From Gaiellaceae bacterium (GTDB lineage Bacteria; Actinomycetota; Thermoleophilia; Gaiellales; Gaiellaceae): a DNA stretch of 45,473 bases. This document shows positions 5,401 through 45,473 of this stretch, piece after piece (the first letter of the stretch is position 1; the number at the start of each line of letters is the position of its first letter). The stretch spans positions 1-45,473 of the forward strand of contig DASZYW010000124.1 in assembly GCA_035545195.1 (NCBI GenBank), given 5' to 3'. Under the pieces are notes generated by a model that searched no databases, was not told the DNA's origin, and worked only from the letters and a program-made list of their open reading frames with translations. A program made the position numbers and the translations under genes.

Positions 5401-5473
5401 GCCCCCATCGACTAGCGGTCCAGGTCGCGGCCCTTTCAAGGCCGTAGCACGGGTTCGAATCCCGTTGGGGGCA
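5401..5473 (+). tRNA. tRNA-Glu (anticodon UUC)
   Basis: Hand-folded cloverleaf. Acceptor GCCCCCA/TGGGGGC; D-arm GACT..GGTC; anticodon stem CGGCC/GGCCG with loop CTTTCAA (anticodon TTC); 4-nt variable loop; T-arm ACGGG-TTCGAAT-CCCGT; discriminator A. CCA is not fully encoded (CCT follows). Confidence 0.9.
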
Positions 5474-5551
5474 CCTCAGCGCTCGCAAGTGCCCGAAACC
5501 GGGGATGAGGCGCGCGGCAGCGGTAGGCTAGAGAGCTGGTCGGAGGCGTCC

Positions 5552-7363
5552 ATGTACGAGTGGGAATGGGGCAAGCGACGACGCCGCGGGTTCGACGGCG
5601 ACCCCGTGGGCTCTCGGTTCGACCGGGCTCAGGTGGGCAGCACGATGCTGCTCCGCTGGGTCGAGCACTGCGTCGAGTGCGCGCCGCCGGACTGCTACCG
5701 CACGTGCACCCTCTACGTCGCGCGCGACGACCGGCGCTGTGCCCGCTTCGTCGACGGGATCGTCGCGGAGCCGTCCGTCCGCGGCCTGTTCGACCACGGC
5801 GCCAGGATCCGCTTCCGGCGCTGGGGCAAGCTGGAGGCCAGGCTGCCGGCGCCCACAGTCGGAACGGACGCGCATCGCGCGCTGGCGCGCTTCGACCGTG
5901 TCGTGACCCGGACACTCGCGGGCGTAGAGTCGGCACTCGGGCGACTCGACCCGCGAAAGCGCCTCCTCGGCGTCTGGGGAATCGTCCGCGAGCAGCTGCT
6001 CGACCGTCTGGCCCGCCGCCGGCAAGCCGCCCATGACGCCTTCGTCCTGGAGTGCCACTCGCTCGAACGCGAGCCGTTCCAGCTCGTGCTCGAGCTGACC
6101 CAGGGCGACGAGGTGCGAGGCCGGATGTCGTTCACGATCGCGCCCGGCCACAACCTCCACGTCGTCCCCGCGGAGACCCTGCCGCCGCCCACGGGCGAGC
6201 GCGGCGGGATCCTGCTGAGCCCGGAGGGAGACGACGAGCGCGAGCTCGTCTTCACCTGGCTCGACTTCGTCTCGTTCGTGCCGGAGGCGCGCGACCACGC
6301 GCCGGCCCCGGCCGCGAAGGTCAAGTGTGTCGCCTGGGATCTCGACGGCACGCTCTGGCGCGGCACGCTCGTCGAAGACGGCCCCGAGGGCTGCGAGCTC
6401 GATCCCGTCGCGGCCGCCGCCGTCCGGGCGCTCGACGAGCGCGGGATTCTCCAGACGATCGTGAGCAAGAACGACCACGACGACGCCTGGGCGCTCGTCG
6501 AGCGCACCGGGCTGAGCGAGTACTTCCTCCACCCGCAGATCTCCTGGAACGCGAAGAGCGCTGGGCTCGCGCGCGCCGCGGCGAGGCTCGACATCGGGCT
6601 CGACACGTTCGCGCTCGTCGACGACTCGGCCTTCGAGCGCGCCGAGGTGTCGCACGCCCTCCCCCAGGTCCGGGTCTACGACGCGGCGTCGATCGGCGGG
6701 CTCCTCGAGCTCCCGGAGCTCGACGTCCCGATCACGGCCGCGAGCGCGCTCCGCCGCCGCTCCTACGTCGAGAACGCGCAGCGTGACGAGGCTCAGGTCG
6801 CGTTCGACGGCTCGCAGCTCGAATTCCTCCGCTCGTGCGGCCTCCGGCTGCGGATCTTCACGCCGGCGTCGGCCGACGAGCGCAAGCGCTGCCTCGAGCT
6901 GGTGCAACGCTCGAACCAGCTCAACCTCTCGACGCGCCGCTACGACGCGAACCAGCTCGACGCGCTGGTCGCCGATCCGGACGTCCTCACGGCCGCCTTC
7001 GAGTGCGAGGACCGCTTCGGCCGCTACGGGATCGTCGGCTTCGCCGCCGTCGAAGAGGGCGACGACGGACCGCTGCTCCGCGATCTGGTGCTCTCGTGTC
7101 GGGTCGCCCGGAAGCGGGTCGAGCAGGCGTTCGTCGACTGGCTCGCCCGCCGCGAGCACGCGCGGGGCGCAACGACCCTCTACGCCGAGATCGTGCCCAC
7201 CGCCCGGAACGGCCCGTTGCGCGAGGTGTTCGCCGAGCTGCCCTTCCTCACCGTCGCCGAGAGCGCGACTGCGATCCGGCTCGAGCTCCCGCTCGCGCAG
7301 CTGCCGGAGCCCGAGGGAATCGTCGAGGTGGTCGACGAGCTCGAAGCGACGCTGCCCGCATGA
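5552..7363 (+). CDS. FkbH-like HAD-IIIC phosphatase-domain protein with N-terminal Cys-cluster domain and C-terminal GNAT-like domain
   Basis: ATG at 5552 lies 5 nt after GGAGG (5542-5546); the longer ORF start overlaps the tRNA. HAD motifs seen: WDLDGTLW (DxDxT), IVSKNDHDDA and LVDDSAFERAEV. The C-terminal region (CEDRFGRYGIVGFAAV...LSCRVARKRVEQAF) is typical of FkbH-family proteins. Confidence 0.75.
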   Translation: MYEWEWGKRRRRGFDGDPVGSRFDRAQVGSTMLLRWVEHCVECAPPDCYRTCTLYVARDDRRCARFVDGIVAEPSVRGLFDHGARIRFRRWGKLEARLPAPTVGTDAHRALARFDRVVTRTLAGVESALGRLDPRKRLLGVWGIVREQLLDRLARRRQAAHDAFVLECHSLEREPFQLVLELTQGDEVRGRMSFTIAPGHNLHVVPAETLPPPTGERGGILLSPEGDDERELVFTWLDFVSFVPEARDHAPAPAAKVKCVAWDLDGTLWRGTLVEDGPEGCELDPVAAAAVRALDERGILQTIVSKNDHDDAWALVERTGLSEYFLHPQISWNAKSAGLARAAARLDIGLDTFALVDDSAFERAEVSHALPQVRVYDAASIGGLLELPELDVPITAASALRRRSYVENAQRDEAQVAFDGSQLEFLRSCGLRLRIFTPASADERKRCLELVQRSNQLNLSTRRYDANQLDALVADPDVLTAAFECEDRFGRYGIVGFAAVEEGDDGPLLRDLVLSCRVARKRVEQAFVDWLARREHARGATTLYAEIVPTARNGPLREVFAELPFLTVAESATAIRLELPLAQLPEPEGIVEVVDELEATLPA

Positions 7364-8124
7364 TCGTCAACGCCGACGATCTCGCGTACGACGAAGGCCG
7401 CAACACCGCGATCCTGGCCCTGCTCGAGCGAGGGCTCGTCGACCGCGCGACGGTGATGGCGAACATGCCGGGCTTCGACGACGCCGCCACCCGCGTCCGC
7501 GCAGCCGGGCTCGAGCAGCGCGTTGGGATTCACCTCGTCCTCAGCGAGGGGACGCCACTCACGGAGGGGATCCGGAGGCTGCCGACCTTCTGCGACGCGA
7601 ACGGCGAGTTCCGGCAGTGGCGCTACGAGCACATCCGACCCTGGCTCCCGCGAGCCGAACGTGACGCACTCGTCGCGGAGCTCACCGCACAGGTCGAGCG
7701 CTGCCGGGCGCACGGGCTACCGGTCGCCCATCTCGATTCGCACCACCACGTGCACAACGAGCCGTCCGTCGCCTTGACGGTGATCCGGGCTGCCAAGCGC
7801 GCAGGCATCGAGTCGATCCGCATCGCGCGCAACTGCCAGCCGGACCTGCGCGGGCCGAAGCGGGCGTACAAATCGGCCTTCAATGCGCTGCTCCGTGCGC
7901 AGGGACTCGCCGCCAGCAGACTCTTCGGGACGCTCGACGATCTCGAATCCCTGCTGAGCCGTCCAGGGGACACCCGCTGGAGCACCTCGTTCGAGCTGAT
8001 GGTGCACCCGGACCTCGCGGAGGACGGCTCGATCGTCGAGTCAGGCCGGCCCGGCAGGCCGCTCGACCTCGAGCTCGAGCGGCTCCGAGGCGGCGGTTCC
8101 CAAATTGCAAACCGTGTTCTATGA
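7360..8124 (+). CDS. YdjC/ChbG-family carbohydrate deacetylase
   Basis: The ATGA overlap with the upstream stop indicates coupling. N-terminal MIVNADDLAY and the metal-site motif HLDSHHHVH are characteristic of the YdjC family. Confidence 0.8.
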   Translation: MIVNADDLAYDEGRNTAILALLERGLVDRATVMANMPGFDDAATRVRAAGLEQRVGIHLVLSEGTPLTEGIRRLPTFCDANGEFRQWRYEHIRPWLPRAERDALVAELTAQVERCRAHGLPVAHLDSHHHVHNEPSVALTVIRAAKRAGIESIRIARNCQPDLRGPKRAYKSAFNALLRAQGLAASRLFGTLDDLESLLSRPGDTRWSTSFELMVHPDLAEDGSIVESGRPGRPLDLELERLRGGGSQIANRVL

Positions 8125-8158
8125 TGGCCTCTCGCGCACGCAAGCGGTGGCGAGCAGC

Positions 8159-9808
8159 ATGAACCCGGATACCCATCTTCCCCACCATGCGCCCCCGACG
8201 TCGCTTCGCGATTACGTGCGCGTCATCCGGCGACGCAAGTGGATCGTCGTCCTCTCGATCCTGATCGTCCCGGGCGCGGCGATCGCCTACTCCCTCCATC
8301 AGCAGAGTCTCTACCGGGCTTCCGCGAAGGTGCTGCTGAGCCAGCAGAACCTGGCATACGCCCTCACCGGCACGCAGACGCCCTCGATCGACCCTACGAG
8401 GGATTCGCAGACCCAGGCGGACGTCGCCCGCGTTCGCTACGTCGCGCGCAACGCGCTCGCGCTCGCTCACAACTCGATGACGGTCGACGACTTCCTCGCC
8501 TCCTCGTCCGTCGACTCGTCTCAGGACTCGAACATCCTCACCTTCTCCGTGACGAACCACGTCCCGGCGGTCTCGGAGCGGCTCGCCACCGACTATGCGA
8601 TGGCCTTCATCGCGTATCGCAACGCTCTCGACACCTCGTCGCTGCGACGCGCGAAGAACGAGGTGCAGCAGGAGCTGTCCGCACTCAGCGCCGCGGGCAA
8701 GCAGGACACGCCGCTCTACACCCAGCTCTCGGAGAAGGCACAGACGATCGACACGTTGACGACGCTCCAGACGTCGAACGCGTCCCTCATCGAGGGCGCC
8801 TCCTCGACGGTGCAGGTGCAGCCGAGGACAAAACGGAATGCCGTGCTGGCGTTCCTTCTCGGCGTCGTGCTCGGCGTCCCGCTCGCGTTCCTCTGGGAGA
8901 CGCTCGACACGCGCGTCCGGACGGCCGAGGAGATCGGCGAGCGGCTCGGCCTGCCGCTGCTCGCCCGCGTCCCGGCGCCGCCGAAGGATCTCGGCGAGCG
9001 GCGCGGGCTGATCATGCGCGACAACCCGCGCGGCCGCGACGCGGAGATCTTCCGGATCCTGCGCACGAATCTCGAATTCGTCCTGCTGGGCAACGACGCC
9101 AGGACAGTGATCGTCACGAGCGCCCTCGACCAGGAGGGCAAGTCGACGACGGCCGCCAACCTCGCGGTCTCGCTTGCCCAGTCCGGGAGGCGCGTCGTCC
9201 TCGTCGACCTCGACCTCCGCCGGCCGACACTCGACCTGTTCTTCCGCCTCAAGGGGCGCCCCGGACTGACGAACGTCGCCGTCGGCCACACCGACCTGGA
9301 CGACGCGCTCGCGGAGATTCCCCTGGTCGACGGCGACGGCATCTCGCCGGCGCTCGACGGGTCGAACGGCTCGCGCTCGCTCGCCTCGTTGGCGACCGGG
9401 TCGATCTCGGTCCTCCCGACCGGTCCGCTCCCGCCGAACGCAGGCGAATTCGTCAGCTCGACCGCGCTCGAGGAGATCCTCGTCGAGCTTCGGCGGCGCT
9501 TCGACATCGTGCTCATCGACACGCCGCCGGCGCTCCAGATCGGTGACGCTCTCACCCTGAGCCGCAAGGTCGACGGAATCGTGGTCGTGACCCGCATGTC
9601 GGTGATCCGGCGGCCGATCCTCACCGAACTGCGGCGCGCACTCGGCGCGAGCCCGGCTGCGAAGCTCGGCTTCATCGCAACCGGCGTCGGCCAGGACGGG
9701 TCCGGCTACGGCTACGGCTACGGGTACGGATACGGGTACTACGAGCAGGCCGAGGAATCGCGCGGGAAGCCTGCGAAGGCATCGAGAGCCCGCTCACGTT
9801 CTCGCTAG
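8159..9808 (+). CDS. Wzz-domain chain-length regulator fused to BY-type tyrosine autokinase (Wzc/CpsCD-like)
   Basis: N-terminal TM (WIVVLSILIVPGAAIAY) plus a Wzz-like periplasmic region and a second TM. Motifs seen: Walker A SALDQEGKSTTAANLA, Walker A' VVLVDLDLRRP, Walker B IVLIDTPP, and a C-terminal Tyr cluster GSGYGYGYGYGYGYY. The start is ambiguous: ATG 8159 was chosen; TTG 8105 is the alternative. Confidence 0.85.
   Translation: MNPDTHLPHHAPPTSLRDYVRVIRRRKWIVVLSILIVPGAAIAYSLHQQSLYRASAKVLLSQQNLAYALTGTQTPSIDPTRDSQTQADVARVRYVARNALALAHNSMTVDDFLASSSVDSSQDSNILTFSVTNHVPAVSERLATDYAMAFIAYRNALDTSSLRRAKNEVQQELSALSAAGKQDTPLYTQLSEKAQTIDTLTTLQTSNASLIEGASSTVQVQPRTKRNAVLAFLLGVVLGVPLAFLWETLDTRVRTAEEIGERLGLPLLARVPAPPKDLGERRGLIMRDNPRGRDAEIFRILRTNLEFVLLGNDARTVIVTSALDQEGKSTTAANLAVSLAQSGRRVVLVDLDLRRPTLDLFFRLKGRPGLTNVAVGHTDLDDALAEIPLVDGDGISPALDGSNGSRSLASLATGSISVLPTGPLPPNAGEFVSSTALEEILVELRRRFDIVLIDTPPALQIGDALTLSRKVDGIVVVTRMSVIRRPILTELRRALGASPAAKLGFIATGVGQDGSGYGYGYGYGYGYYEQAEESRGKPAKASRARSRSR
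9704..9742 (+). repeat. imperfect hexanucleotide tandem repeat (GGCTAC)n encoding the (Gly-Tyr)n tail of the kinase
   Basis: Read directly: GGCTAC GGCTAC GGCTAC GGGTAC GGATAC GGGTAC TAC. Confidence 0.9.
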
Positions 9809-9815: not shown

Positions 9816-10361
9816 GTGCGAGCAGTCTTCCTCGATCGCGACGGAGTCCTGAACCGGCTCGTCATCGGCGGCGACGGCGTCGGACGGCCGCCCGCCGGCG
9901 TCGACCAGCTCGAGCTGCTGCCGGGAGTCGATCGCGCGTGCCGCCGTCTGAAGGCGGCCGGTTTCGCGCTTCTCGTCGCGACCAACCAGCCGGACGTGGC
10001 GAGGGGACGACTGTCTCGGGGAGCCGTCGAGGAGGTCAACGCCGCACTCGCCGAGCGGCTCCCCCTCGACGAGATCCTCGTTTGCTATCACGACGACGCG
10101 GACGGCTGCGCGTGCCGGAAGCCGCAACCGGGTCTCCTGCTCGAGGCCGCCGGACGCTGGCGGATCGATCTCGCTCAGAGCTACCTCGTCGGAGACCGCC
10201 CGAAGGACATCACCGCGGGGCGTCACGCCGGCTGCACGACCATCCTCGTCGGCCGGGGCGACATCGGAGATGCGGATCACCGAGCGTCGGGACTCGCAGA
10301 TGCCGCGACCTGGCTGCTCCAGCGAGACCCGGCACCGACGATGGACGCCGCGAGATCGTGA
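9816..10361 (+). CDS. gmhB: D-glycero-D-manno-heptose 1,7-bisphosphate phosphatase (HAD family)
   Basis: GTG start after AGGAG. Motifs seen: FLDRDGVLN (HAD motif I), VATNQPDVARG, the zinc/loop motif CYHDDADGCACRKPQPGLL, and GDRPKDI. Confidence 0.8.
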   Translation: MRAVFLDRDGVLNRLVIGGDGVGRPPAGVDQLELLPGVDRACRRLKAAGFALLVATNQPDVARGRLSRGAVEEVNAALAERLPLDEILVCYHDDADGCACRKPQPGLLLEAAGRWRIDLAQSYLVGDRPKDITAGRHAGCTTILVGRGDIGDADHRASGLADAATWLLQRDPAPTMDAARS

Positions 10362-10469: not shown

Positions 10470-11123
10470 TTGAACGTCCTCGCATTCCGGGACGTGCACG
10501 CGCACGCGGTGTGGCCGCTCCGCGGACGTATCGCCAAGCGCTCGATCGATCTCGTGCTCAGCACCGTGCTGCTCGCGCTCCTCGCCCCCGTCTTCGCCGT
10601 CCTCGCGATCGCCGTGCTCGCCGCCGACGGCCGCCCGATCTTCTACCGCTGGGACGTCGTCGGATTGGAAGGGCGTCCGTTCACAGGTTGGAAGTTCCGG
10701 ACGATGGTCCAGGATGCCGACCGGTTGCGGGAGCGGCTCCTGCACCGGAACGAGATGAGCGGCCCCGTGTTCAAGCTGCAGAACGACCCGCGGATCACGA
10801 GGCTCGGTCGGATCCTGCGCCACTACAGCCTCGACGAGCTTCCCCAGCTGTGGAGCGTGTTCCGCGGCGACATGAGCCTCGTCGGGCCGCGCCCGTCGTT
10901 CCCGCACGAATACGCACAGCTGACCGAGTCCCAGCGCCGGCGCCTCTCGGTGAAGCCGGGGATCACGTGTCTCTGGCAGATCGAGGGACGCAGCGCGCTC
11001 GCCGAGTTCGACCACTGGCTCGAGCTGGACTTCCGCTACATCGACGAATGGTCGATCAGGACGGACCTGAAGATCCTCCTGCGCACGATTCCGGCCGTGC
11101 TGAGCGGTCGGGGCGCATGGTGA
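10470..11123 (+). CDS. small (PglC/WbaP C-domain type) polyprenyl-phosphate phosphoglycosyl transferase, initiating enzyme
   Basis: Single N-terminal re-entrant helix (LVLSTVLLALLAPVFAVLAIAVL). Motifs seen: KFRTM, GPVFKLQNDPRITRLG, DELPQLWSVFRGDMSLVGPRP, KPGITCLWQ. The exact start is uncertain (TTG 10470). Confidence 0.85.
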   Translation: MNVLAFRDVHAHAVWPLRGRIAKRSIDLVLSTVLLALLAPVFAVLAIAVLAADGRPIFYRWDVVGLEGRPFTGWKFRTMVQDADRLRERLLHRNEMSGPVFKLQNDPRITRLGRILRHYSLDELPQLWSVFRGDMSLVGPRPSFPHEYAQLTESQRRRLSVKPGITCLWQIEGRSALAEFDHWLELDFRYIDEWSIRTDLKILLRTIPAVLSGRGAW

Positions 11124-12571
11124 TCGCGCACGCCGGTCGCACACGCCGCCTCTCCGAGCCGGCGGCGGCACAGGAGCTCGCAGTCCGACTCGGCACGGGG
11201 CTCGCGCTCGTCGCCGTGCTGACTGCCTGCGGACTGGCGGTCGTGCGGGCGCCCGCAGCGGCGGGACTTCTCGTCGGCCTCGTCGTCGCCGGCTTCGTCG
11301 CCGCCGACTGGCGGCGCGGCGTCGGCATCCTCGTGGTCGTCCTCGCCTTCGCCGGGCTGCCTGTGTTCCTGATCAACTCGAAGTACGCGCCGGTCCTGAA
11401 GGATCTCTTCGTCGTCGTCCCCGTCTACGCCGGCTTCTTCGGGTCGCGAATCATGCGACGGGAACCGCTCTGGCCGCGCGGCGACGCCTTGACTCCGCTC
11501 CTCTTGCTCTTCGCGTCGATGACGGTCGTCTACTCGCTCGTCAGCCCCACGCCGGCGGTGGCGGCGATCGGCCTCAAGGTCTGGCTCCTCTACATCCCGC
11601 TCTACGGAGTCGGGTACGCGTACGTCCGGGGCCGGGAGGACGTGATCCGGATCGTCCGCAGCCTCGCAATCGTCGCCGTGGTGCCGGTGCTCCTGGCCCT
11701 CGTCGAGCTCTTCTACTTCATCCAGAGCGGAGGGTTCGGGCCGCTGCTCTCCTTCTACGGCCGCTTCTCGTCGGGGATCGTCCGCCAAGTCGGGTTCGGC
11801 GTCACCGTGCCCAGGATCCCGTCGACGTTCACCTTCAACGGCAGCTACTACGACTTCGCCTTCGTGGCATTCATGGCCGGGCTCGCCTACTGGGGATACC
11901 GCCGGACGCGCCTCTCCGCTGCGCTCGCCCTCGTCGCCGCCGCCGGAGCACTCGTGAGCGGCGAGCGGCGCGCTTACATCACGATTCCGGTCGCGCTCGT
12001 CGCCGCCGTCGCTCTGATGGGATCCGGATCGCACACCCGCTTGCGCGTCGCACTCGCGGGATTCGCAGGGATCGTCGCCCTCTCCTGGCTCGGCATTCCG
12101 ATCCTCGACATCTCGAACCGGCTCTCCGAGGGGACGGTGTCGAACATCAACGCTGCCTCCCAGCAACTCGAGCCGGCACTGAAGCACGGCTTCTTCGGCC
12201 ACGGAACCGGCTCGGGCACGAACGCCGCCTTCCGCTACAGCGGGTTGTCACCGTCGTCGAAGTTCGCCGAGAGCTGGTACACGAAGGCTCTGGTCGAGCT
12301 CGGCTACTTCGGCGTCGCGGTCGTGCTCGCGATCATGGTCGTCCTCGTTCGCCGCGGCTACGGGATCGTGCGGGGGCTCTCGCCCCCGGACCGCGCTCTC
12401 GCGGCGCCGATCTGGGTGCTGCTCTTTCTGACGGCGCTTCTGCTCGCCAAGGCTTCGGAGCTCGACTGGGATCCGCTGGACGCGTACTTCTGGCTCTTTG
12501 CCGGGATGCTCTCCGGCCTCGGCGCAGTGGCGGGCGATCACGAGGGCCGGACGCCGGACCCCGAGCGCTAG
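11117..12571 (+). CDS. polytopic membrane protein of the Wzy_C / O-antigen polymerase-ligase family (candidate Wzy)
   Basis: ATG at 11117 overlaps the upstream stop (ATGGTGA). There are about 10 or more hydrophobic segments. The loop motif FFGHGTGSGTNA...ESWYTKALVELGYFGVAVVL resembles the Wzy_C signature. Confidence 0.65.
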   Translation: MVIAHAGRTRRLSEPAAAQELAVRLGTGLALVAVLTACGLAVVRAPAAAGLLVGLVVAGFVAADWRRGVGILVVVLAFAGLPVFLINSKYAPVLKDLFVVVPVYAGFFGSRIMRREPLWPRGDALTPLLLLFASMTVVYSLVSPTPAVAAIGLKVWLLYIPLYGVGYAYVRGREDVIRIVRSLAIVAVVPVLLALVELFYFIQSGGFGPLLSFYGRFSSGIVRQVGFGVTVPRIPSTFTFNGSYYDFAFVAFMAGLAYWGYRRTRLSAALALVAAAGALVSGERRAYITIPVALVAAVALMGSGSHTRLRVALAGFAGIVALSWLGIPILDISNRLSEGTVSNINAASQQLEPALKHGFFGHGTGSGTNAAFRYSGLSPSSKFAESWYTKALVELGYFGVAVVLAIMVVLVRRGYGIVRGLSPPDRALAAPIWVLLFLTALLLAKASELDWDPLDAYFWLFAGMLSGLGAVAGDHEGRTPDPER

Positions 12572-16458: not shown

Positions 16459-17066
16459 TGGCGCGGCAACTCGACGGCAGCATCATGCGGCCCGGCTTGG
16501 CGGCCCGCTACTGGCGCTGCTTCGGCGACGCCCGGGTCGTCCTCGACGTCGGCTGCGGCGCGGGAGCGTTCGGACGCCTCCGACCGTCACCGGAGATCGC
16601 CGTGCACGGCGTCGACGCCGACCCACGCGCCGTCGCCTCAGCCGCCGAACACGAGCAGGCGCTCGTGGTGGACCTCGACGAGGGTCGCCTTCCCTACGAC
16701 GACGAGACGTTCGACGCCGTGCTCGCGAAGGACGTCCTCGAGCACGTCCGCGACCCGCTCGCCGTCGCGCGAGAGATCAACCGCGTCCTCAAGCCCGGCG
16801 GCCCGCTCGTCGTCTCCGTGATCGAGGCCCGCTCGAGCCGCGTGTGGTCGGACTACACGCACCGACGAGGGTTCACCAGGCGTTCGGCCCGCGCGCTTCT
16901 GGAGGACAGCGGGTTCGACGTCGAGGCGATCTGGCGCATGGGTCCCGTCCCGGGAGCCGACCGACTCGGGCTGATCGGTCTCGTCCCGGCGCTGCTCCGC
17001 TTCCCGCCGGCCTCGCTGCTCTGGGGCTTCAGCTGGGAGCTGCTGGCCCGGCGTGCGACTCGGTGA
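16458..17066 (+). CDS. class I SAM-dependent methyltransferase
   Basis: ATG at 16458 overlaps the upstream TGA (TGATG). Motifs seen: motif I VLDVGCGAGAFG, VLAKDVLEHVRDP, LKPGGPLVVSV. Confidence 0.75.
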   Translation: MARQLDGSIMRPGLAARYWRCFGDARVVLDVGCGAGAFGRLRPSPEIAVHGVDADPRAVASAAEHEQALVVDLDEGRLPYDDETFDAVLAKDVLEHVRDPLAVAREINRVLKPGGPLVVSVIEARSSRVWSDYTHRRGFTRRSARALLEDSGFDVEAIWRMGPVPGADRLGLIGLVPALLRFPPASLLWGFSWELLARRATR

Positions 17067-39378: not shown

Positions 39379-39936
39379 ATGATCGGCCGTCACGACCCGC
39401 TCGCCGACCCGCGGGCCCTGATCCCGAAGCTGTATCGGTACGTCGCGTACGTGATCGGCGACGGTCCGGACGCCGAGGACGTGACCAGCGAGGCGTTCGA
39501 ACGCGCCCTTCGCTACCGGGACTCCTACGACCCGAAACGCGGCAGCCCACTCACCTGGCTGGTCGGGATCGCCGCCCGCTGCATCAGCGACCGCGGCGCC
39601 GTCCTCGCGCGCGCTCCCGTTCCGACCGCCGAGATGGAGCTGCACGCCGGAACGGCCGACGACTTCACCGACGAGGCGACGCTACGCCTGCGCGTCGCGA
39701 CCGTCCTCGGCGAGCTCTCCGAGCGCGACCGCGAGCTGGTCGCGCTCCGCTACGGAGCCGACCTGACGGCACGCGAGGTCGGAGCGCATCTCGGGCTGAC
39801 CACGAACGCCGCCGAGGTCGCTCTCCACCGCCTCAACCGGCGCCTGCGCAGCGAGCTCGCCGAGCTCGACCGGCCTCCGCCGTCGAAAGCCGTCGAACCG
39901 GAGCGTAAGGGTCTGGACGCCCCGGCCGGTATCTAG
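39379..39936 (+). CDS. ECF-type RNA polymerase sigma-70 family factor
   Basis: ATG at 39379 after GAAGG. Region 2: DAEDVTSEAFERALRYRDSYDPKRGSPLTWLVGIA. Region 4 HTH: LSERDRELVALRYGADLTAREVGAHLGLTTNAAEVALHR. Confidence 0.85.
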   Translation: MIGRHDPLADPRALIPKLYRYVAYVIGDGPDAEDVTSEAFERALRYRDSYDPKRGSPLTWLVGIAARCISDRGAVLARAPVPTAEMELHAGTADDFTDEATLRLRVATVLGELSERDRELVALRYGADLTAREVGAHLGLTTNAAEVALHRLNRRLRSELAELDRPPPSKAVEPERKGLDAPAGI

Positions 39937-39984
39937 CCCGAACGTCGGCGTGTCTATTCGGACGGTGAGGGTGGTGTCGAGGCG

Positions 39985-41253
39985 ATGCACATGAACAGGT
40001 GGCGGAAGGATTCGGATCTGAAGCGGCTCTTCTCGAAGGTCGAGCCGCAGGTCCCGGAAGGTCTCGTCGAGCGGCTTACGGCACGTGCGGCCCGCCCGAG
40101 CACGACCCGCTGGGCGATGCGTCGCGTCGCGCTGGCAGGCGGCCTGAGCGTCGTGCTGCTGACCGCGCTGGCCGCGGTCGGCGGAATCAGCTACGCCGGC
40201 ACGCTGGCCAAGGACATCGTCACCGGACAGACCGTGCACCGCATCGTCTTCGGTTCGCGGCTGAGCCAGAAGGAGCAGGTGAGCGCGCTGCCGCAGGCGC
40301 ACAATGCCGCGCTCGACCAGTACGGCCAGTCCGGAAACGAGACGACCCAAGCAGTCAAGCCGGACCAGACGCAGACCGTCAGCGCCGGCACCTCGTCCGT
40401 CGCCATCACGCCCGACGCGGCAAGCGCGATCGTGGCGGCCGCCCCCGGCGCGTTGATCCACGTCGACCCGACGCCGCCGAACCAGGCGGGCAACCTCGCC
40501 GCCGTCAGCATCGTCGTCACGAACGCGCAGGGCACGATCATTCCGATCACGCTGAGCGGCGACCAGAAGCCGCTGGCCGTGACCCTGGCCGCGAGCACGG
40601 GCGACGGCGCGATCCCGTGCGTCGACAGCGGCAACGGCTGCGCTGCCGCCCCGGAGCTGACGGACGCTGCCAAGGCCAAGGTGGCCGCGGGGACGCTCAC
40701 CTGCAGCGACCTCGACTCCACGACGCGAGACGGCTACTACGAGCCGGACGCGTCGCACGTCGTGATCTTCACGTGTCACCTCACGGTCTTCGCGGTGGTC
40801 ACGAAGGACAAGCTCAGCATCAGCGCGTCGGGCCGGAAGTTCGCGCCCGCAGGAAGCGGCAAGTTCGGCGATCCGACCCTGTACTCGCCGCAGCCGGCGC
40901 AGCTGAAGCAGGTCGGCTCCAGCGTCACCGTGGGCTCGCTGAAGTCGCTCTCCGGCCACTCGGTCTCGTTCGGCTTCTTCGTCAACGAGCAGGTCGCGGC
41001 CTACATCACCGTGTTCGCCAAGGGCAAGAAGCTCCCGATCGCCCTCAAGGGCACGATGATCCGTGGCACGACTCTCACGAACAAGGTCGACGTGAAGGCG
41101 CTGCACATCCCCGTGCTGAAGCCGGGAACGCTGAAGCTCCGGCTTCGGATCCCCGACGGTCGCCTGCAGCCGGGCGAGCACTACCGGATCCGCATTCTCG
41201 CGATCGACTACGACGGCAACAAGACGTACGGCTTCATCCCGTTCACCGGTTGA
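39985..41253 (+). CDS. single-pass membrane protein with large extracytoplasmic beta-rich domain (candidate anti-sigma factor / sensor partner)
   Basis: It lies 48 nt downstream of the ECF sigma gene. It has a ~45-aa cytoplasmic head, a TM (VALAGGLSVVLLTALAAVGGISYAG) and a ~350-aa external domain. No HxxxCxxC zinc anti-sigma motif is present. The functional call is by position only. Confidence 0.45.
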   Translation: MHMNRWRKDSDLKRLFSKVEPQVPEGLVERLTARAARPSTTRWAMRRVALAGGLSVVLLTALAAVGGISYAGTLAKDIVTGQTVHRIVFGSRLSQKEQVSALPQAHNAALDQYGQSGNETTQAVKPDQTQTVSAGTSSVAITPDAASAIVAAAPGALIHVDPTPPNQAGNLAAVSIVVTNAQGTIIPITLSGDQKPLAVTLAASTGDGAIPCVDSGNGCAAAPELTDAAKAKVAAGTLTCSDLDSTTRDGYYEPDASHVVIFTCHLTVFAVVTKDKLSISASGRKFAPAGSGKFGDPTLYSPQPAQLKQVGSSVTVGSLKSLSGHSVSFGFFVNEQVAAYITVFAKGKKLPIALKGTMIRGTTLTNKVDVKALHIPVLKPGTLKLRLRIPDGRLQPGEHYRIRILAIDYDGNKTYGFIPFTG

Positions 41254-41324: not shown

Positions 41325-42116
41325 GTGGCCACAACGAGCATCGTCGATCTCCACTCGCACGTGCTCCCGGCCCTCGACGACGGCCCGGAGACGCTGGAGG
41401 AGAGCGTCGAGGCCGGACGCGCAGCAGTCGCCGCGGGCGTGACGATCCTGGCCGCCACGCCGCATGTGCGTCAGGACTACCCCACCACGGCCGACCGAAT
41501 GGAGGAGGCCCTCGCCGCCGTCCGCTCGGCGTACGCGCGCGAGGGCGTCGGACTCGATCTCCGTGGCGGCGGCGAGCTCGATCTGGAGTGGCTGGCCGTG
41601 CTCGAGCCGCGAGAAGTCAGACGCTTCGGCCTGGCCGGAAACCCGAGCTACGTGCTCGTGGAGTTTCCGAGCGGCGCCTGGCCGCTGAACCTGCGGAGCG
41701 TCGTATTCCAGCTCGCGCTGGAGGGCATCGCGCCGGTCTTGGCGCACCCGGAGATCAATCCGGACGTGCAAGCCCACCCTGAGCGGCTGCGCGAGCTGGT
41801 CGACGCCGGCGCACTCGTGCAGGTCACCGCGGCGTCTCTGGACGGTCGCTACGGCGCGGTCGCGCTTCGCACCGCCGAGCTCCTCCTCACCGCGGAGCTC
41901 GTCCATCTCGTGGCCAGCGACGCACACGGCGCGGACATGCGCGGCTTCGACTTCGGCGGCGCCGCTCGGCGGATCGCCGATCCCGAGCTCGAGCGCTGGC
42001 TCCTGCACGACGTCCCGGGCGCGATCGCAGGCGCCATGCCGCTCCCGGAGCGACCTCGACGACCAGAGCACGTGCGACGAGGCCGGCTGCGTCGGCGCCG
42101 GGTCCGAGAGGACTAG
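41325..42116 (+). CDS. CpsB/YwqE-type PHP-domain manganese-dependent protein-tyrosine phosphatase
   Basis: GTG start. Motifs seen: IVDLHSHVLPALDDGPETLEES, ILAATPHV, LVASDAHG. These are hallmark PHP/CpsB motifs. Confidence 0.8.
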   Translation: MATTSIVDLHSHVLPALDDGPETLEESVEAGRAAVAAGVTILAATPHVRQDYPTTADRMEEALAAVRSAYAREGVGLDLRGGGELDLEWLAVLEPREVRRFGLAGNPSYVLVEFPSGAWPLNLRSVVFQLALEGIAPVLAHPEINPDVQAHPERLRELVDAGALVQVTAASLDGRYGAVALRTAELLLTAELVHLVASDAHGADMRGFDFGGAARRIADPELERWLLHDVPGAIAGAMPLPERPRRPEHVRRGRLRRRRVRED

Positions 42117-42130: not shown

Positions 42131-42910
42131 GTGGACAGCCCTCGCGTCGTCATCCTCGCAGGCGGCCTCGGCACGCGACTGCGTGAGGAGACCGAGTTCC
42201 GGCCGAAGCCGATGGTCGAGGTCGGCGGCAAGCCGATCGTCTGGCACATCATGAAGGGCTTCGCCCACTACGGCCTGACGTCGTTCATCGTCTGCGTGGG
42301 CTACAAGGGCGAGATCATCAAGGACTACTTCCTCAACTACCGCGCCCGCAACAACGACTTCACCGTCACCCTCGGCGAGCACGAGCAGGTCGAGTTCCAC
42401 GGCCGCCACGCCGAGTCGAACTGGACGGTCACCGTCGCCGACACGGGCGACGACACGATGACGGGAGGGCGCGTCTTCCAGACCCGGCCGTACGTCGACG
42501 GCACCTTCATCTGCACCTACGGCGACGGGCTCGCCGACGTGCCGATCGACCGCCTACTCGAGTTCCACCGCTCGCACGGCGCGCTCGCGACCGTCACGAC
42601 CGTCCAGCCGCTCAGCCGCTTCGGCGTGATGGAGGTGATCGGCGACGGCGTCGTCGAGCGCTTCCGCGAGAAGCCGCAGCAGCAGGGCTGGGTGAACGCA
42701 GGCTTCTTCGTCTTCGAGCCCGGCGTCTTCGACTACCTCGACGAGAGCTCGGTGCTCGAGCAGGACCCGCTCGCCAGGCTGGCGGCGGACAACCAGCTGC
42801 GCGCGTACCGCCACGACGGCTTCTGGCAGCCGATGGACACGTACCGGGAGCTCGTGCTCCTGAACGGACTCTGGGACAGCGGCGACGCGCCCTGGAAGGT
42901 CTGGTCGTGA
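42131..42910 (+). CDS. rfbF: glucose-1-phosphate cytidylyltransferase
   Basis: Motifs seen: VVILAGGLGTRLREETEFRPKPMVEVGGKPIVWHIMK, FIVCVGYKGEIIKDYFLNY, TGGRV, FWQPMDTYRE. This is full-length RfbF/DdhA-like colinearity. Confidence 0.88.
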   Translation: MDSPRVVILAGGLGTRLREETEFRPKPMVEVGGKPIVWHIMKGFAHYGLTSFIVCVGYKGEIIKDYFLNYRARNNDFTVTLGEHEQVEFHGRHAESNWTVTVADTGDDTMTGGRVFQTRPYVDGTFICTYGDGLADVPIDRLLEFHRSHGALATVTTVQPLSRFGVMEVIGDGVVERFREKPQQQGWVNAGFFVFEPGVFDYLDESSVLEQDPLARLAADNQLRAYRHDGFWQPMDTYRELVLLNGLWDSGDAPWKVWS

Positions 42911-43872
42911 CCGGGCCGCAGCGGGTGCTCGTCACCGGCGCGACCGGGGTCGTCGGCTCCTGGCTGACCCGTCGCCTCGTCGAGGACGGCGCCTACGTCG
43001 TCGCGCTCGTCCGCGACATGGACCCGCAGTCGGAGCTGCTCCGGAGCGGCACCCTGCAGCGGATCTCGGTCGTCAGCGGCGAGCTCGAGGACGCGCGCGC
43101 CGTCGCCCGCGCGGTCGTCGAGCACGAGGTCGACACGATCATGCACCTGGGCGCGCAGACGATCGTCGGGGCCGCGCTGCGCGACCCGGCCGCGACGTTC
43201 GCGAGCAACCTGCAGGGGACGTGGAACGTGCTCGAGGCGGCGCGCCTCCACCCCGACCTCGTCCGCGCCGTCGTCGTCGCGAGCTCCGACAAGGCCTACG
43301 GCTCCGCGGACCGGCTCCCGTACACCGAGGACTTTCCGCTCCATGGACGCAGCCCGTACGACGTGTCGAAGAGCTGCACAGACCTGCTCGCGACCTCGTA
43401 CGCGACGACGTACGGGACGCCGGCGCTGATCGCGCGCTGCGGCAACATCTACGGCGGCGGCGACCTGAACTGGAGCCGGATCGTGCCGGGGACGATCCGC
43501 TCGCTCCTGCACGGCGAGCAGCCGATCATCCGCAGCGACGGCACCTTCCGCCGCGACTACCTGCACGTGGACGACGCGGTCGACGCGTACCTCCTGCTCG
43601 CGGAGCGCGCGCTCGCCGGCGAGCACCGCGGCGAGGCGTTCAACTTCGGCCACGAGTCGCCCGTGACGGTGCGCGAGATCTACGACCTGACGTGCCGCGC
43701 CACCGTCGGGCACGAGGTCGAGGCGAACGTCCTCGGCCAGGCCGAGCACGAGATCCGCGACCAGTGGCTCTCCGCCGCGAAGGCGCGTGAGCGGCTCGGC
43801 TGGGCGCCGCGCGTCTCGCTCGAGGACGGCCTCGCGCGGACCGTCGACTGGTACCGCGCGCTCTTCGCCTAG
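42907..43872 (+). CDS. extended-SDR NDP-hexose 4,6-dehydratase-like enzyme (CDP-glucose 4,6-dehydratase candidate)
   Basis: GTGA overlap with the rfbF stop. Motifs seen: VLVTGATGVVGSWL, SSDKAYG, PYDVSKSC (YxxxK), RCGNIYGGGDLNWSRIVPG (resembles RfbG R-GNVIGGGD). Confidence 0.65.
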   Translation: MTGPQRVLVTGATGVVGSWLTRRLVEDGAYVVALVRDMDPQSELLRSGTLQRISVVSGELEDARAVARAVVEHEVDTIMHLGAQTIVGAALRDPAATFASNLQGTWNVLEAARLHPDLVRAVVVASSDKAYGSADRLPYTEDFPLHGRSPYDVSKSCTDLLATSYATTYGTPALIARCGNIYGGGDLNWSRIVPGTIRSLLHGEQPIIRSDGTFRRDYLHVDDAVDAYLLLAERALAGEHRGEAFNFGHESPVTVREIYDLTCRATVGHEVEANVLGQAEHEIRDQWLSAAKARERLGWAPRVSLEDGLARTVDWYRALFA

Positions 43873-45473
43873 AGGGCGAGCGCCGACTCCCGCACCGCCG
43901 CGAGCGTCTCGTCGTCGAGGTGCGGGTACATGTCGTCGAGCGCGGGAGTCATGATCTTGCCGTCGCGCATCCGCGAGCGCAGGCGCGGCTCGAACTCCTG
44001 CTCGCGGTCGAGCGGCGCCACGCACACGCGCGGCCCCGTCGCGGCGACGGCGGCCGCGACCTGCGCGCGCCAGTCGCCGCCCGGGTCGAGCGTCGTCACC
44101 GGCAGGTCGAAGCTCGCCGCGACGCGCGCGAAGTCCGGGAAGGTGACGCCGGACGCGGGCGACGCGCCGAACTCGCGTCCGAAGAAGTTCGACTGCGTCT
44201 GGCGGATCGAGAGGTAGCCGCCGTTGTCGAGGATCACGAGCAGCACGTCGGGCGCCCAGGCGGCGAGCGTCTGCAGCTCCTGCAGGTTCATCATCACCGA
44301 GCCGTCGCCGGCGAGGCAGACGACGCGGCGGTCGGGCGCGGCCGTCGCGGCGCCGAGCGCCGCCGGGAGGTCGTAGCCCATCGACGCGGAGCCGCTGTTC
44401 GAGAAGAGCCTCAGCCCGGCAGGCACGCGCAGGGTCTGGAACGGGACGATGCAGGCGGTCGCGTCGCCGCACGCGACGACATGGCTGCCGTCGAGCAGCT
44501 CGCCGAGCTCGAGCACGAGGTGGTACGGGTTGATCCCGCCGGGCCGCGCCGGGTAGTCCTCCGCCTTCGGCTCGAAGCGGGCGCGGACGTCACGGCACCA
44601 CTCGAGCCACGCCGTCCGCGGGGCTGCGGTCTCCGGCGCTGCGGCGAGCAGGCCGGGCAGGAAGTCGCGGAGGTCGGCGACGATCGGCACGTCGGGGCGG
44701 ACGTACGGCTTCTGCAGCTCGGCCTCGTCCACGTCGACCCACACGATCGTCGCGTGCGGCGCGAACTCCGCCCAGTTGTAGCTCACCTGGCGCACGTTCA
44801 GCCGCGAGCCGAGGACGAGGATCAGGTCGGCGCTCTGCGCGACGAAGTTGCCGGCGCGCGTGCCGATCGTCCCCGGCCGCCCCGCGTAGAGCGGGTGGTC
44901 GCTGGGAACGGTGTCGTGCGTCCAGGCCGTGGCCACCGGCACGTTCAGCCGCTCGGCGAGCGGCACGAGCAGGTCGGCGCAGCCGGCGGCGCGGATCCCG
45001 GTGCCGGCGAGGATCAGCGGGCGCCGAGCCGCGTCGATCCGCGCGAGCACGTCCGCGTAGACGGCGTCGCCGGGCGGCGCCACCGGCCGGACGAGCTCGG
45101 GCAGCGGCGCGTCGGGGTCGGCGTCGAGCTCGGCGCCCTGCACGTCCACGGGCACGTCGAGCCAGGCCGGCCCGGGGCGGCCGGAGATCGCGGCGGCGAC
45201 CGTCCGGTCGAGCAGCTCCGGGAGCTGCGCCGGGTCGGTGACGGTCTCGGCCGAGACGGTGATCTCGCACGCCATCTCGACGATGCGCGCCTCCTGGTCG
45301 CCGAGCTGGCGGAGGCCTGCGACGCCGGCGAGCGACGACATCGTGTCGCGCCGCGACTGGCCGCCGATCACGACCATCGGCGTCGAGTCGGTGAACGCGC
45401 CGAAGACGCCGTTGAACGCGTTCAGCCCGCCGGGGCCGGTCGTGACGTTGAGCACCGCCGGGCGGCCGGTGAC
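43869..45473 (-). CDS. thiamine-diphosphate-dependent enzyme of the acetolactate-synthase-like family (N-terminus outside window)
   Basis: The frame is open to the window edge. Motifs seen: TTGPGGLNAFNGV and the ThDP motif GSASMGYDLPAALGA...CLAGDGSVMMNLQELQT...LDNGGY. The C-terminal EFEPRLRSR..DGKIMTPALDDMYPHL tail is seen in glycan-cluster ThDP enzymes. Confidence 0.8.
   Translation of the reverse strand, partial: VTGRPAVLNVTTGPGGLNAFNGVFGAFTDSTPMVVIGGQSRRDTMSSLAGVAGLRQLGDQEARIVEMACEITVSAETVTDPAQLPELLDRTVAAAISGRPGPAWLDVPVDVQGAELDADPDAPLPELVRPVAPPGDAVYADVLARIDAARRPLILAGTGIRAAGCADLLVPLAERLNVPVATAWTHDTVPSDHPLYAGRPGTIGTRAGNFVAQSADLILVLGSRLNVRQVSYNWAEFAPHATIVWVDVDEAELQKPYVRPDVPIVADLRDFLPGLLAAAPETAAPRTAWLEWCRDVRARFEPKAEDYPARPGGINPYHLVLELGELLDGSHVVACGDATACIVPFQTLRVPAGLRLFSNSGSASMGYDLPAALGAATAAPDRRVVCLAGDGSVMMNLQELQTLAAWAPDVLLVILDNGGYLSIRQTQSNFFGREFGASPASGVTFPDFARVAASFDLPVTTLDPGGDWRAQVAAAVAATGPRVCVAPLDREQEFEPRLRSRMRDGKIMTPALDDMYPHLDDETLAAVRESALAL

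Follow-up and report, generated by a model that had tools for sequence, protein, structure and literature searches.

A Gaiellaceae glycan locus combining a predicted UDP-sulfoquinovose synthase with a widespread transaldolase-containing cassette for a putative higher sugar

The closest described counterparts of the locus examined here are the Wzx/Wzy-type capsule and exopolysaccharide loci (streptococcal cps, colanic acid/group 1 capsule). It shares with them an initiating phosphoglycosyl transferase (PGT) of the Bac_transf family, a MOP-family Wzx flippase, Wzy_C-type proteins, a polysaccharide copolymerase (PCP) joined to a bacterial tyrosine kinase (BY-kinase) with a tyrosine-rich tail, a PHP phosphatase, many glycosyltransferases (GT) of families GT4 and GT2, and embedded precursor genes. 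The locus lies on a 45,473-nucleotide metagenome contig from a Gaiellaceae bacterium (DASZYW010000124.1, assembly GCA_035545195.1), referred to below as the window; as the window is the entire contig, the locus is cut off at its right end. In contrast to the described loci, the kinase is fused (Wzc-like) yet paired with a Firmicutes-type CpsB phosphatase, an extracytoplasmic function (ECF) sigma/anti-sigma-like gene pair is embedded, and the precursor genes form a set unlike that of any described locus we found. The main value of the analysis lies in two testable generalizations drawn from this precursor set, namely that sulfoquinovose may be used in actinobacterial surface glycans, and that a transaldolase-dependent higher-sugar pathway may be present in hundreds of genomes.

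An initial annotation of the window, made from the sequence without database searches, had already proposed a glycan locus with three precursor branches (UDP-sulfoquinovose, GDP-heptose, and CDP-hexose with a thiamine diphosphate [ThDP] enzyme). Our family assignments, made with Pfam and NCBIfam and with scores compared to curated cut-offs, agree with it on the PGT (whose coordinates hold exactly), Wzx, the BY-kinase and CpsB phosphatase, six GT4 and one GT2 (one GT4 being half of a fusion protein), three methyltransferase domains (one forming the N-terminal half of the same fusion), the DegT aminotransferase, and the FkbH/YdjC pair (Table 1). It named no described bacterial glycan with this precursor set, and we likewise found none in the searchable literature. 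Three parts of the pathways were absent from its list: the transaldolase, a second SDR (SDR2), and the HAD-IIIA phosphatase.

Current reviews present sulfoquinovose as a sulfolipid head group of phototrophs and give the N-glycans of Sulfolobus as the sole non-lipid case. For bacteria, a 2026 review covers only the SqdB/SqdX sulfolipid route and mentions neither polysaccharides nor glycoproteins, and no sulfoquinovose-containing bacterial polysaccharide was found in the literature searched. The window nonetheless encodes a protein with full-length, high-scoring similarity to the SQD1/SqdB/Agl3 family: residues 17-399 align with residues 2-384 of Arabidopsis SQD1 (1QRR, 606.5 bits), and the SQD1 catalytic positions are identical in two segments, GTMGEYG and a 12-residue stretch with Tyr-His...Lys, the former holding the catalytic Thr of SQD1 and the latter its catalytic Tyr-His...Lys. 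The protein narrowly misses the NCBIfam equivalog NF041015 (497.6 against a cut-off of 575, over the full model, 1-383/384), a shortfall that is outweighed because of the SQD1 match. Judged by sequence, the predicted function is secure, and the UDP-sulfoquinovose branch of the initial annotation is thereby upheld, including the co-operonic position of its gene with glycosyltransferases.

The nearest relatives of the synthase come from a Gaiellaceae metagenome-assembled genome (MAG; 86% identity), Solirubrobacterales MAGs (~80%), and Rubrobacter xylanophilus (77%-78%), which places the source organism among actinobacteria of the Thermoleophilia type. Four relatives, R. xylanophilus among them, carry orthologs (77%-80% identity), each in a glycan locus of another design. 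In one (L005), the gene lies in a Wzm/Wzt ABC-transporter locus with GT2 genes; in two, it is near GT92, Branch, sulfotransferase, and ABC exporter genes; and in R. xylanophilus (CP073779.1), it adjoins a PMT_2/TMEM260-like GT-C enzyme. These classes may make general use of sulfoquinovose as a unit of their glycans. In the window, the synthase gene heads a 15-gene run that also holds glycosyltransferases, and we infer from this genomic context that sulfoquinovose enters a surface glycan rather than a sulfolipid, a use that is apparently undescribed. The enzyme would supply a sulfonated 6-deoxyhexose to the glycan. As far as the cited account of Agl3 goes (N-glycan of Sulfolobus acidocaldarius; PMC4388408), the context in the window likewise points to a glycan and not a lipid. 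The present case differs from SQD1, SqdB, and Agl3 in its bacterial, non-phototrophic host, in the location of the gene inside a Wzx/Wzy polysaccharide operon, and in that no SqdX/SqdD partner was identified. If Thermoleophilia and Rubrobacter, which are abundant soil Actinomycetota, do routinely build sulfoquinovose into surface polysaccharides, they would be an overlooked non-phototrophic source of a major organosulfur compound.

Among the closest described relatives of the second branch by enzyme families is the amino-sugar route of the lincosamide antibiotics. There, the transaldolase LmbR, the GmhA-like isomerase LmbN, the kinase LmbP, the GmhB-like phosphatase LmbK, and the nucleotidyltransferase LmbO yield a GDP-octose, which is tailored by the epimerase LmbM, the dehydrogenase LmbL, the oxidoreductase LmbZ/CcbZ, and the aminotransferase LmbS/CcbS (PMC4351081; PMC12945683). 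CcbL is a 436-aa "nucleotide sugar dehydrogenase" homolog, CcbM is UDP-glucose 4-epimerase-like, and CcbZ is dehydrogenase-like (PMC4351081). Compared by family description only, all nine enzyme families of the pathway in Streptomyces lincolnensis and S. caelestis have a counterpart in the window if DegT is counted: the transaldolase, SIS, GHMP kinase, HAD-IIIA, and nucleotidyltransferase set (26858-31127 plus 9816-10361) and a tailoring set of GalE-like epimerase, nucleotide-sugar dehydrogenase, Gfo-type oxidoreductase, and DegT. Unlike the lincosamide clusters, the window holds a glycan locus without nonribosomal peptide synthetase or mycothiol-related genes, it has an extra SDR, and its transaldolase is probably of a different subtype.

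In the route that we propose, the transaldolase would make a ketose phosphate, which the SIS enzyme would isomerize to an aldose phosphate; the GHMP kinase would then phosphorylate C1, the HAD-IIIA enzyme would remove the terminal phosphate, and the nucleotidyltransferase would activate the sugar. Tailoring of the resulting nucleoside diphosphate (NDP)-sugar would fall to the GalE-like epimerase, the nucleotide-sugar dehydrogenase, two SDRs, the Gfo/Idh/MocA enzyme, and probably DegT. Two of the tailoring genes have particular features. SDR2 is 47% identical to the upstream SDR1 and is not present in the syntenic locus described below; its frame runs without a stop to 26010, giving a long overlap of 172 nt with the Gfo gene, which starts at 25839; the overlap could be natural or stem from a frameshift in the assembly. 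The alignment of the epimerase (28560-29678) with solved epimerases falls into two blocks, residues 3-137 and 176-344, indicating an insertion of ~40 residues; only the versions in three other loci (L001, described below, L059, and L066) are 70%-83% identical to it.

To place the cassette more widely, we used the transaldolase as an anchor in a scan of 185,579 species genomes, which returned transaldolase-anchored loci in at least 574 genomes. Co-occurrence was counted in the best 80 of these loci (~14 phyla, 54%-67% transaldolase identity), which were searched with all window proteins and whose open reading frames (ORFs) were clustered. They include Acidobacteriota, Chloroflexota, Planctomycetota, several proteobacterial classes, Desulfobacterota, Myxococcota, Elusimicrobiota, Latescibacterota, Nitrospirota, Verrucomicrobiota, and others. 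An SIS isomerase was present in 71 of the 80 loci and an HAD-IIIA phosphatase, adjoining the transaldolase and 44%-63% identical, in 67; at least 64 kept the transaldolase together with both, across phyla. Less frequent were the GHMP kinase (46/80), an extended-SDR epimerase (~46/80), Gfo/Idh/MocA (31-33/80), the nucleotidyltransferase (21-31/80), nucleotide-sugar dehydrogenase (21-24/80), SDR (22/80), and DegT (9-10/80). The commonest gene order was epimerase, dehydrogenase, SDR, Gfo, kinase, nucleotidyltransferase, SIS, HAD, transaldolase. Sulfoquinovose synthase, FkbH, and YdjC were found in none of the 80 loci.

This co-occurrence groups the dehydrogenase, SDR, and Gfo genes (22851-26861) with the higher-sugar set rather than with the sulfoquinovose synthase, and argues that their products act on the cassette's own sugar. 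The several oxidoreductases that the initial annotation had listed as separate items are present, and three of these families travel with the cassette. We considered and rejected the possibility that they form a UDP-sugar branch of the sulfoquinovose synthase, given the absence of that synthase from all 80 loci. A WbpA/B/E-type route to a 2,3-diamino-uronic acid (dehydrogenase, Gfo, and DegT) is chemically possible, but the cross-phylum link to the transaldolase/SIS/HAD core argues against it. Nor is the transaldolase a good candidate for the sulfofructose transaldolase of sulfoquinovose catabolism, as it scores 34.7 bits against BmSF-TAL compared with 75 for ordinary transaldolases.

Complete cassettes are found on plasmid 3 of Lawsonia intracellularis (NC_008014.1, ~14.5-22.9 kb) and on a megaplasmid of Rhizobium jaguaris CCGE525 (pRCCGE525c, ~960-975 kb). 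In both, the annotation is generic only; PGAP names of the Lawsonia genes include ("SIS domain-containing protein," "HAD-IIIA family hydrolase," "transaldolase," "nucleotide sugar dehydrogenase," "galactokinase"), and that cassette is flanked by two hypothetical proteins of ~1,090 aa and an LPG_synthase_TM protein. There was no match to the cassette in 5,426 Escherichia coli genomes, and a transaldolase match on a plasmid of Streptomyces sp. 3211 has an unrelated context. We found no paper in the literature describing the cassette. The cassette is common to hundreds of genomes, including those of a veterinary pathogen and a cultivable rhizobium, without an assigned product. Eleven loci have a second subtype of the cassette, in which SIS, HAD, and transaldolase genes are followed by an epimerase, a 522-aa HldE-like protein, a Gfo enzyme, and a nucleotide-sugar dehydrogenase. 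In the 522-aa protein, a cytidylyltransferase-like HxGH motif lies toward the N-terminus and a PfkB kinase motif toward the C-terminus, the reverse of the HldE domain order, and this bifunctional protein stands in for the kinase and nucleotidyltransferase.

What the cassette makes can be narrowed to two main readings. An octulose-8-phosphate-derived NDP-octose, formed as in the LmbR/N/P/K/O route of the lincosamides, has in our judgment about an even chance of being the product; a modified heptose is a serious possibility, and anything else is improbable. We lean toward the octose because sedoheptulose-7-phosphate is universal, yet the transaldolase stays tied to SIS and HAD across phyla; an extra transaldolase does not seem an obvious means of raising the supply of that compound. 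The nine-family match, the cassette-rich taxa that hold the nearest relatives of several Ccb proteins, and the low scores on heptose equivalogs (the last two given below) point the same way, and reviews of heptose clusters make no mention of a transaldolase. Several points weigh against an octose, however. Heptose enzymes are the best characterized relatives of the kinase (WcbL, 162 bits), the isomerase (GmhA, 39 bits), and the phosphatase (GmhB, 116 bits), and the window transaldolase is of the housekeeping TIGR02134 type, 48% identical to the Staphylococcus aureus housekeeping enzyme. CcbR, by comparison, is a protein of 222 aa that most resembles a Cellulomonas transaldolase (PMC4351081). 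The window transaldolase and CcbR may therefore be independent recruits. The likeness to the octose route is one of family match, with orthology to the Lmb/Ccb enzymes putative, and the second cassette subtype with its HldE-like activator mirrors the ADP-heptose route. We know of no aldo-octose in any bacterial glycan.

The alternative that these points favor is that the cassette is a heptose route, as the initial annotation suggested with its GDP-heptose branch. The transaldolase would then only boost sedoheptulose-7-phosphate, and the dehydrogenase, SDR, and Gfo enzymes would tailor a heptose, for example to hepturonic, keto, or amino derivatives. We consider this quite possible. All four GDP-heptose enzyme families are represented in the locus, heptose enzymes come closest among solved or curated proteins (WcbL/HddA at 153-162 bits, the former being the best solved relative of the kinase; GmhA; GmhB), the transaldolase is above the cut-off of a housekeeping model, the HldE-like subtype has its parallel in ADP-heptose synthesis, and, according to the literature, bacterial capsules and S-layer glycans commonly contain heptoses. 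On the other hand, all four enzymes fall far below the NCBIfam heptose equivalog cut-offs: the SIS isomerase scores 41.7 on GmhA (cut-off 209), the GHMP kinase 153.1 on HddA (600), the phosphatase 115.8 on GmhB (178) and 63.6 on the alpha-specific model (250), and the nucleotidyltransferase 71.2 on HddC (300). The heptose model is not the best fit for the nucleotidyltransferase, which does better on those for GDP-mannose and UDP-glucose; its values on GDP-, UDP-, and dTDP-type models are similar. The GDP-heptose branch of the initial annotation is thus supported as to the presence of the four families but not as to their assignment as heptose enzymes. Described heptose clusters also lack a transaldolase, whereas here one is embedded and, in at least 64 of 80 loci, tied to SIS and HAD although its product is ubiquitous. 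To our knowledge, neither nucleotide-sugar dehydrogenases nor Gfo-type enzymes take part in the heptose tailoring described so far, which uses 4,6-dehydratases, cupin epimerases, and C4 reductases; the tailoring of the lincosamide octose uses both.

A further reading, which we rate as less likely than not, is that the cassette represents a widespread, unrecognized pathway to an NDP-octose (or an amino, deoxy, or uronic derivative) for surface glycans, that it was the evolutionary source of the lincosamide amino-sugar pathway, and that its combination here with sulfoquinovose would give the first bacterial polysaccharide to carry an aldo-octose together with a C-sulfonated sugar. Outside the lincosamide clusters, the Ccb proteins have their nearest reported relatives in Solibacter usitatus (CcbK, 49%), Acidobacterium capsulatum (CcbO, 38%), uncultured Acidobacteria (CcbZ, 40%), and Sorangium (CcbN, 39%; CcbP, 37%) (PMC4351081). 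Acidobacteria and Sorangium are taxa rich in the cassette. An octose product would add a new monosaccharide class to bacterial glycobiology and explain the origin of the lincomycin sugar pathway; if the product is a heptose, the role of the embedded transaldolase would still need explanation.

A synteny comparison of the kind suggested in the initial annotation showed that the stretch from the PGT to the epimerase-Gfo fusion is shared with the Gaiellaceae MAG GCA_054639215.1 (L001), where it lies on one strand and encodes products 49%-84% identical to those of the window. This shared gene run indicates that the sulfoquinovose synthase and higher-sugar genes are co-inherited with the glycosyltransferases and are, as predicted from gene order, very probably co-transcribed with them. 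Between the two Wzx proteins (window 12568-13809, L001 963-2270), similarity is undetectable at E<1e-10, and several GT4 genes are non-orthologous between the two loci; with one precursor cassette in common, the two lineages probably assemble different repeat units. Also in L001, the HAD-IIIA phosphatase and PGT are called as one 399-aa fusion (1-969); the window has a separate gene for each, with 108 nt between the two. Considering the modular model as a whole, we find it rather probable that the locus is a mosaic of modules, each recurring independently elsewhere, and not a unique invention. In this model, gene identities, synteny, and the recurrence of the modules are observed, whereas the chemistry, the chain length of the sugar, the nucleotides, and the fate of each sugar are predictions. 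MAGs are full of diverse glycan loci, and the present one is ordinary in kind and a new variant in content.

Gene calling at the G+C content of the window (68%-77%), at which raw ORF lists were swamped by spurious frames, relied on a codon-usage log-odds caller trained on the clearest ORFs. It gave 39 non-overlapping genes, and a 40th (SDR2) was recognized by eye in the sole large "gap" (24992-25838). To the left of the tRNA-Glu gene are an FtsH-like protease, a hypothetical protein, and a RecD2 helicase (Pfam); to its right, 35 genes extend to the contig end. An Rfam scan of the window found nothing besides the tRNA, and two window proteins looked up as exact sequences gave no match. Strand and spacing suggest ~10 transcription units on both strands, the largest from 21590 (sulfoquinovose synthase) to 37389 (methyltransferase-GT4 fusion) with 15 plus-strand genes, mostly spaced by -4 to +35 nt; scans for consensus promoters and terminators were at or below shuffle expectation, and the units are thus defined by strand and spacing alone. 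G+C content at third codon positions (GC3) averages ~0.90 in 5552-42116, compared with 0.965-0.99 in the housekeeping genes at 1-5131 and in 42131-45473. The low-GC3 block begins directly after tRNA-Glu, an island-like signature, and no integrase is present. Hence, the main locus looks like a compositionally distinct island beside a tRNA gene. The initial annotation had every gene from the tRNA to the window edge as glycan-related. This is accurate for nearly all of them, the ECF sigma/anti-sigma-like pair (39379-41253) being the exception, and the locus does continue to the edge with no unrelated block, although that edge is only the contig end.

The assembly genes support, at the level of sequence families, a Wzx/Wzy-type, BY-kinase-regulated heteropolysaccharide locus. 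In the proposed mechanism, a repeat unit would be built on polyprenyl phosphate, flipped by Wzx, and polymerized by a Wzy-type protein, with the kinase/phosphatase pair governing chain length and export. The PGT is 73% identical to its L001 ortholog. Of the two Wzy_C proteins in the initial annotation, one (37365-39242) matches the family directly and is predicted to be a second polymerase or a ligase/O-glycosylation-type enzyme. The other, the 484-aa probable polymerase, has no direct match to Pfam Wzy_C even at E<=1, but 13 of its 63 aligned homologs match it. The protein thus appears Wzy_C-related through transitive homology, so that "two Wzy_C proteins" is true at the family level. Its family is small (386 clusters in 1.84 billion representatives), and a profile of it found no match in the PDB. 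The ECF sigma factor and the 422-aa single-transmembrane (TM) protein after it, for which Pfam and NCBIfam gave no family match, look like a sigma/anti-sigma pair. Neither an LCP ligase nor an OPX protein was found in the window. The GT4 genes at 14039-15247 and 15250-16458 have 54%-58% identical orthologs in L001, and proteins of the 31132-37389 block match HpsP-like (182 bits) and WcaI-family (126 bits) models of NCBIfam.

The third precursor branch is nearest to the YerE/ErwE/JanthE systems for yersiniose and erwiniose. JanthE, described in the literature as a YerE-like, ketone-accepting carboligase, is the best solved relative of the ThDP enzyme (8RPH, 332.2 bits against 234.4 for the best acetolactate synthase, measured with P0123, an 89%-identical full-length relative). 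As in those systems, the gene lies beside those for CDP-glucose-forming and 4,6-dehydratase-like enzymes; the latter scores below the equivalog cut-off (Table 1) but has the CDP-glucose 4,6-dehydratase 1WVG as its best PDB match, with SSDKAYG (Asp-Lys) and YDVSK (YxxxK) aligned. The ThDP motif is the usual GDG here and CDG in JanthE. Assignments as a true acetolactate synthase (far below all cut-offs, with JanthE clearly better) or a sulfoacetaldehyde acetyltransferase (160.7 against a cut-off of 620) were rejected. The module that the initial annotation had predicted is real, and it is conserved in relatives: two loci (L088 and L089) encode proteins 73%-92% identical overall, with 78%-92% for the cytidylyltransferase and the dehydratase-like SDR. 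In both, the ThDP gene closes an operon of GT2, epimerase, GtrA, and methyltransferase genes, convergent on the cytidylyltransferase-dehydratase pair, a coupling that differs from YerE systems. By analogy with this order, the same four genes are expected just beyond the contig end at 45473. GT2 with GtrA is the usual sign of a polyprenyl-phosphate-sugar route for modification outside the membrane. The module would make a C-branched sugar from a CDP-4-keto-6-deoxyhexose. No 3-deoxygenation enzymes (E1/E3) were found in the window or in the L088 and L089 flanks, which points to a 6-deoxy C-branched hexose as the product instead of yersiniose A. Given the tie to GT2 and GtrA in relatives, this sugar would probably decorate a glycan outside the membrane, and the module may belong to a neighboring native system. 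In L005, a split transketolase-like pair (5429-7188; Transketolase_N, and Transket_pyr with Transketolase_C) lies in a GT2-epimerase-GtrA-methyltransferase module analogous in layout to that of L088 and L089, and may offer another ThDP-dependent way to a sugar with a two-carbon branch.

That all three precursor branches feed one product is not established. The contig ends within the ThDP gene, ~10 transcription units lie on both strands, and in GC3 (~0.97-0.98) the CDP/ThDP genes resemble the housekeeping genes of the flank, not the main locus. The region could instead hold at least two adjacent, separate glycoconjugate systems, a Wzx/Wzy island (5.5-42.1 kb) and a native polyprenyl-phosphate-sugar decoration or protein-glycosylation system with the CDP/ThDP genes and possibly the Wzy_C protein with tetratricopeptide repeats (TPR). 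We consider this somewhat unlikely. Consistent with it are the GC3 break (0.965-0.98 in 42131-45473 and the left flank, against ~0.90), the GT2-epimerase-GtrA-methyltransferase operon of L088 and L089, the existence of two Wzy_C-type proteins, and the lack of any match from the 109-kb contig of L001 among the best 120 matches each of ThDP and FkbH searches, an indirect sign that these genes are absent there. Nonetheless, CpsB, the partner of the far-left BY-kinase, lies in the same plus-strand run as the cytidylyltransferase and dehydratase genes (gaps of 14 nt and -4 nt), and the region is contiguous with no unrelated genes between. For the heteropolysaccharide that the initial annotation derived from one combined locus, the Wzx/Wzy and BY-kinase set speaks in favor, while the codon signature of the CDP/ThDP module and the GT2-GtrA link in relatives do not; the module may supply a separate or decorating glycan, an outcome that the initial annotation had named as one that would count against it in the form of branches feeding unrelated products.

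Finally, it is quite unlikely that UDP-sulfoquinovose feeds an SQDG-like membrane sulfoglycolipid, leaving the polysaccharide unsulfonated: although SqdB/SqdX is the only bacterial use described in the 2026 review, and a GT4 gene (20340-21416) that could encode an SqdX/SQD2-type transferase lies 173 nt upstream of the synthase gene on the opposite strand, this GT4 has no specific assignment and its best L001 match (37%) is located elsewhere, the synthase gene is followed after 28 nt by the cassette and then GT genes, and across five related genomes the synthase has no conserved adjacent SqdX-like or other GT4 neighbor in its varied glycan loci. SqdX/SQD2 enzymes are themselves GT4.

Table 1. 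Features of the window from the tRNA-Glu gene to the contig end, with the main evidence for each (scores in bits; > or < gives the relation to the curated cut-off).
Feature	Coordinates	Strand	Evidence and remarks
tRNA-Glu (anticodon TTC; UUC)	5401-5475	+	ARAGORN; Rfam RF00005 63.7; left boundary of compositionally distinct region
FkbH-domain protein, three domains	5552-7363	+	TIGR01686 220.7 > 146.65
YdjC-family carbohydrate deacetylase	7360-8124	+	PF04794 147.6; translationally coupled to FkbH
Fused PCP/BY-kinase (Wzz + GNVR + P-loop, (GY)6 tail)	8114-9808	+	Pfam; TIGR01007 130.4 > 108; two TM segments, tyrosine-rich C-terminus
HAD-IIIA phosphatase (GmhB/LmbK-like)	9816-10361	+	NF006506 115.8 < 178; displaced cassette member
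Small monotopic initiating PGT	10470-11123	+	PF02397 (Bac_transf) 214.8 (cut-off 27); TIGR03025 273.5
10-TM membrane protein, 484 aa, probable Wzy polymerase	11117-12571	+	HpsL-like C-terminus 75; conserved in L001
Wzx flippase (MOP family)	12568-13809	-	PF13440 62.9 > 23; PF01943 42.5 > 28.2; ~10 TM segments
GT4	14039-15247	+	Pfam; NCBIfam generic GT4
GT4	15250-16458	+	Pfam; NCBIfam generic GT4
Class I methyltransferase	16458-17066	+	Pfam
GT4	17029-18210	-	Pfam
DegT/PseC/LegC-like aminotransferase	18207-19334	-	PF01041 415.4; TIGR04181 369 < 420
FkbM-family methyltransferase	19441-20343	+	PF05050 59.3
GT4, divergent from sulfoquinovose synthase gene	20340-21416	-	Pfam; no specific NCBIfam assignment
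Predicted UDP-sulfoquinovose synthase (SQD1/SqdB/Agl3 family), 410 aa	21590-22822	+	First gene of 15-gene run
Nucleotide-sugar dehydrogenase	22851-24134	+	TIGR03026 263.8 > 189.8
SDR1	24131-24991	+	Pfam
SDR2, SDR1 paralog	25006-25838 (frame open to 26010)	+	adh_short 184.6
Gfo/Idh/MocA oxidoreductase	25839-26861	+	Pfam
Nucleotidyltransferase	26858-27583	+	Pfam/NCBIfam
GHMP anomeric kinase	27580-28563	+	Best PDB relative WcbL heptokinase 161.6
GalE-like epimerase with insertion	28560-29678	+	Pfam/NCBIfam
SIS isomerase	29668-30279	+	38.8 against GmhA
Transaldolase	30309-31127	+	TIGR02134 324.8 > 281.95
GT4	31132-32340	+	Pfam; conserved in L001
Epimerase + Gfo/Idh/MocA fusion	32337-34400	+	Pfam; conserved in L001
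GT2	34436-35269	+	Pfam
Methyltransferase + GT4 fusion	35266-37389	+	Pfam
Wzy_C membrane protein with C-terminal TPR	37365-39242	-	PF04932 43.8 > 31.7; TPR_14; 11 TM segments; weak TIGR03097 O-glycosylation ligase match
ECF sigma factor	39379-39936	+	Sigma70_r2/r4
Single-TM protein, 422 aa, large extracytoplasmic domain	39985-41253	+	Anti-sigma-like topology; TM at residues 48-66
CpsB-type PHP tyrosine phosphatase, BY-kinase partner	41325-42116	+	PF19567 131.5 (cut-off 27)
Glucose-1-phosphate cytidylyltransferase	42131-42910	+	TIGR02623 338.6 > 300.25
CDP-glucose 4,6-dehydratase-like SDR	42907-43872	+	TIGR02622 202.3 < 278.45
YerE-like ThDP carboligase	43869-45473	-	GDG...NN ThDP motif; N-terminus past contig end

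At the left end of the locus, the FkbH-YdjC pair recurs as coupled genes in two other MAGs (54% and 45%-47% identity), among other sugar genes, and forms an independent two-gene module. FkbH enzymes are known to draw a glyceryl unit from 1,3-bisphosphoglycerate, YdjC proteins remove N-acetyl groups from sugars, and the flagellar glycan of Campylobacter jejuni carries di-O-methylglyceroyl groups. The flagellar glycosylation locus of C. jejuni includes an fkbH-domain gene according to the literature, although we found no paper that mentions FkbH and YdjC together. Combining the two activities, we suggest with low confidence that the pair may exchange an N-acetyl for a glycerate-derived (glyceroyl) group. 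Weighing against this, none of the 40 window genes is like that of an acyl carrier protein for FkbH, nor is such a gene found beside the pair in the two other MAGs. An AlphaFold (AF2) model of FkbH (mean pLDDT 88) has a beta-rich N-terminal domain, an HAD-IIIC phosphatase, and a C-terminal GNAT-fold acyltransferase, and a Foldseek search with it recovered MDP-1-like HAD and GNAT folds. The N-terminal domain (~250 aa, 5552-6301) has no Pfam or PDB match. An alignment of 56 homologs shows the HAD motif and, as invariant residues, the N-terminal cysteines C40, C43, C48, C52, and C63 in a ferredoxin-like CxxCx4Cx3C...C arrangement and two more cysteines further on. The cysteine loop is the sole low-confidence part of the model and may be a metal or Fe-S site.

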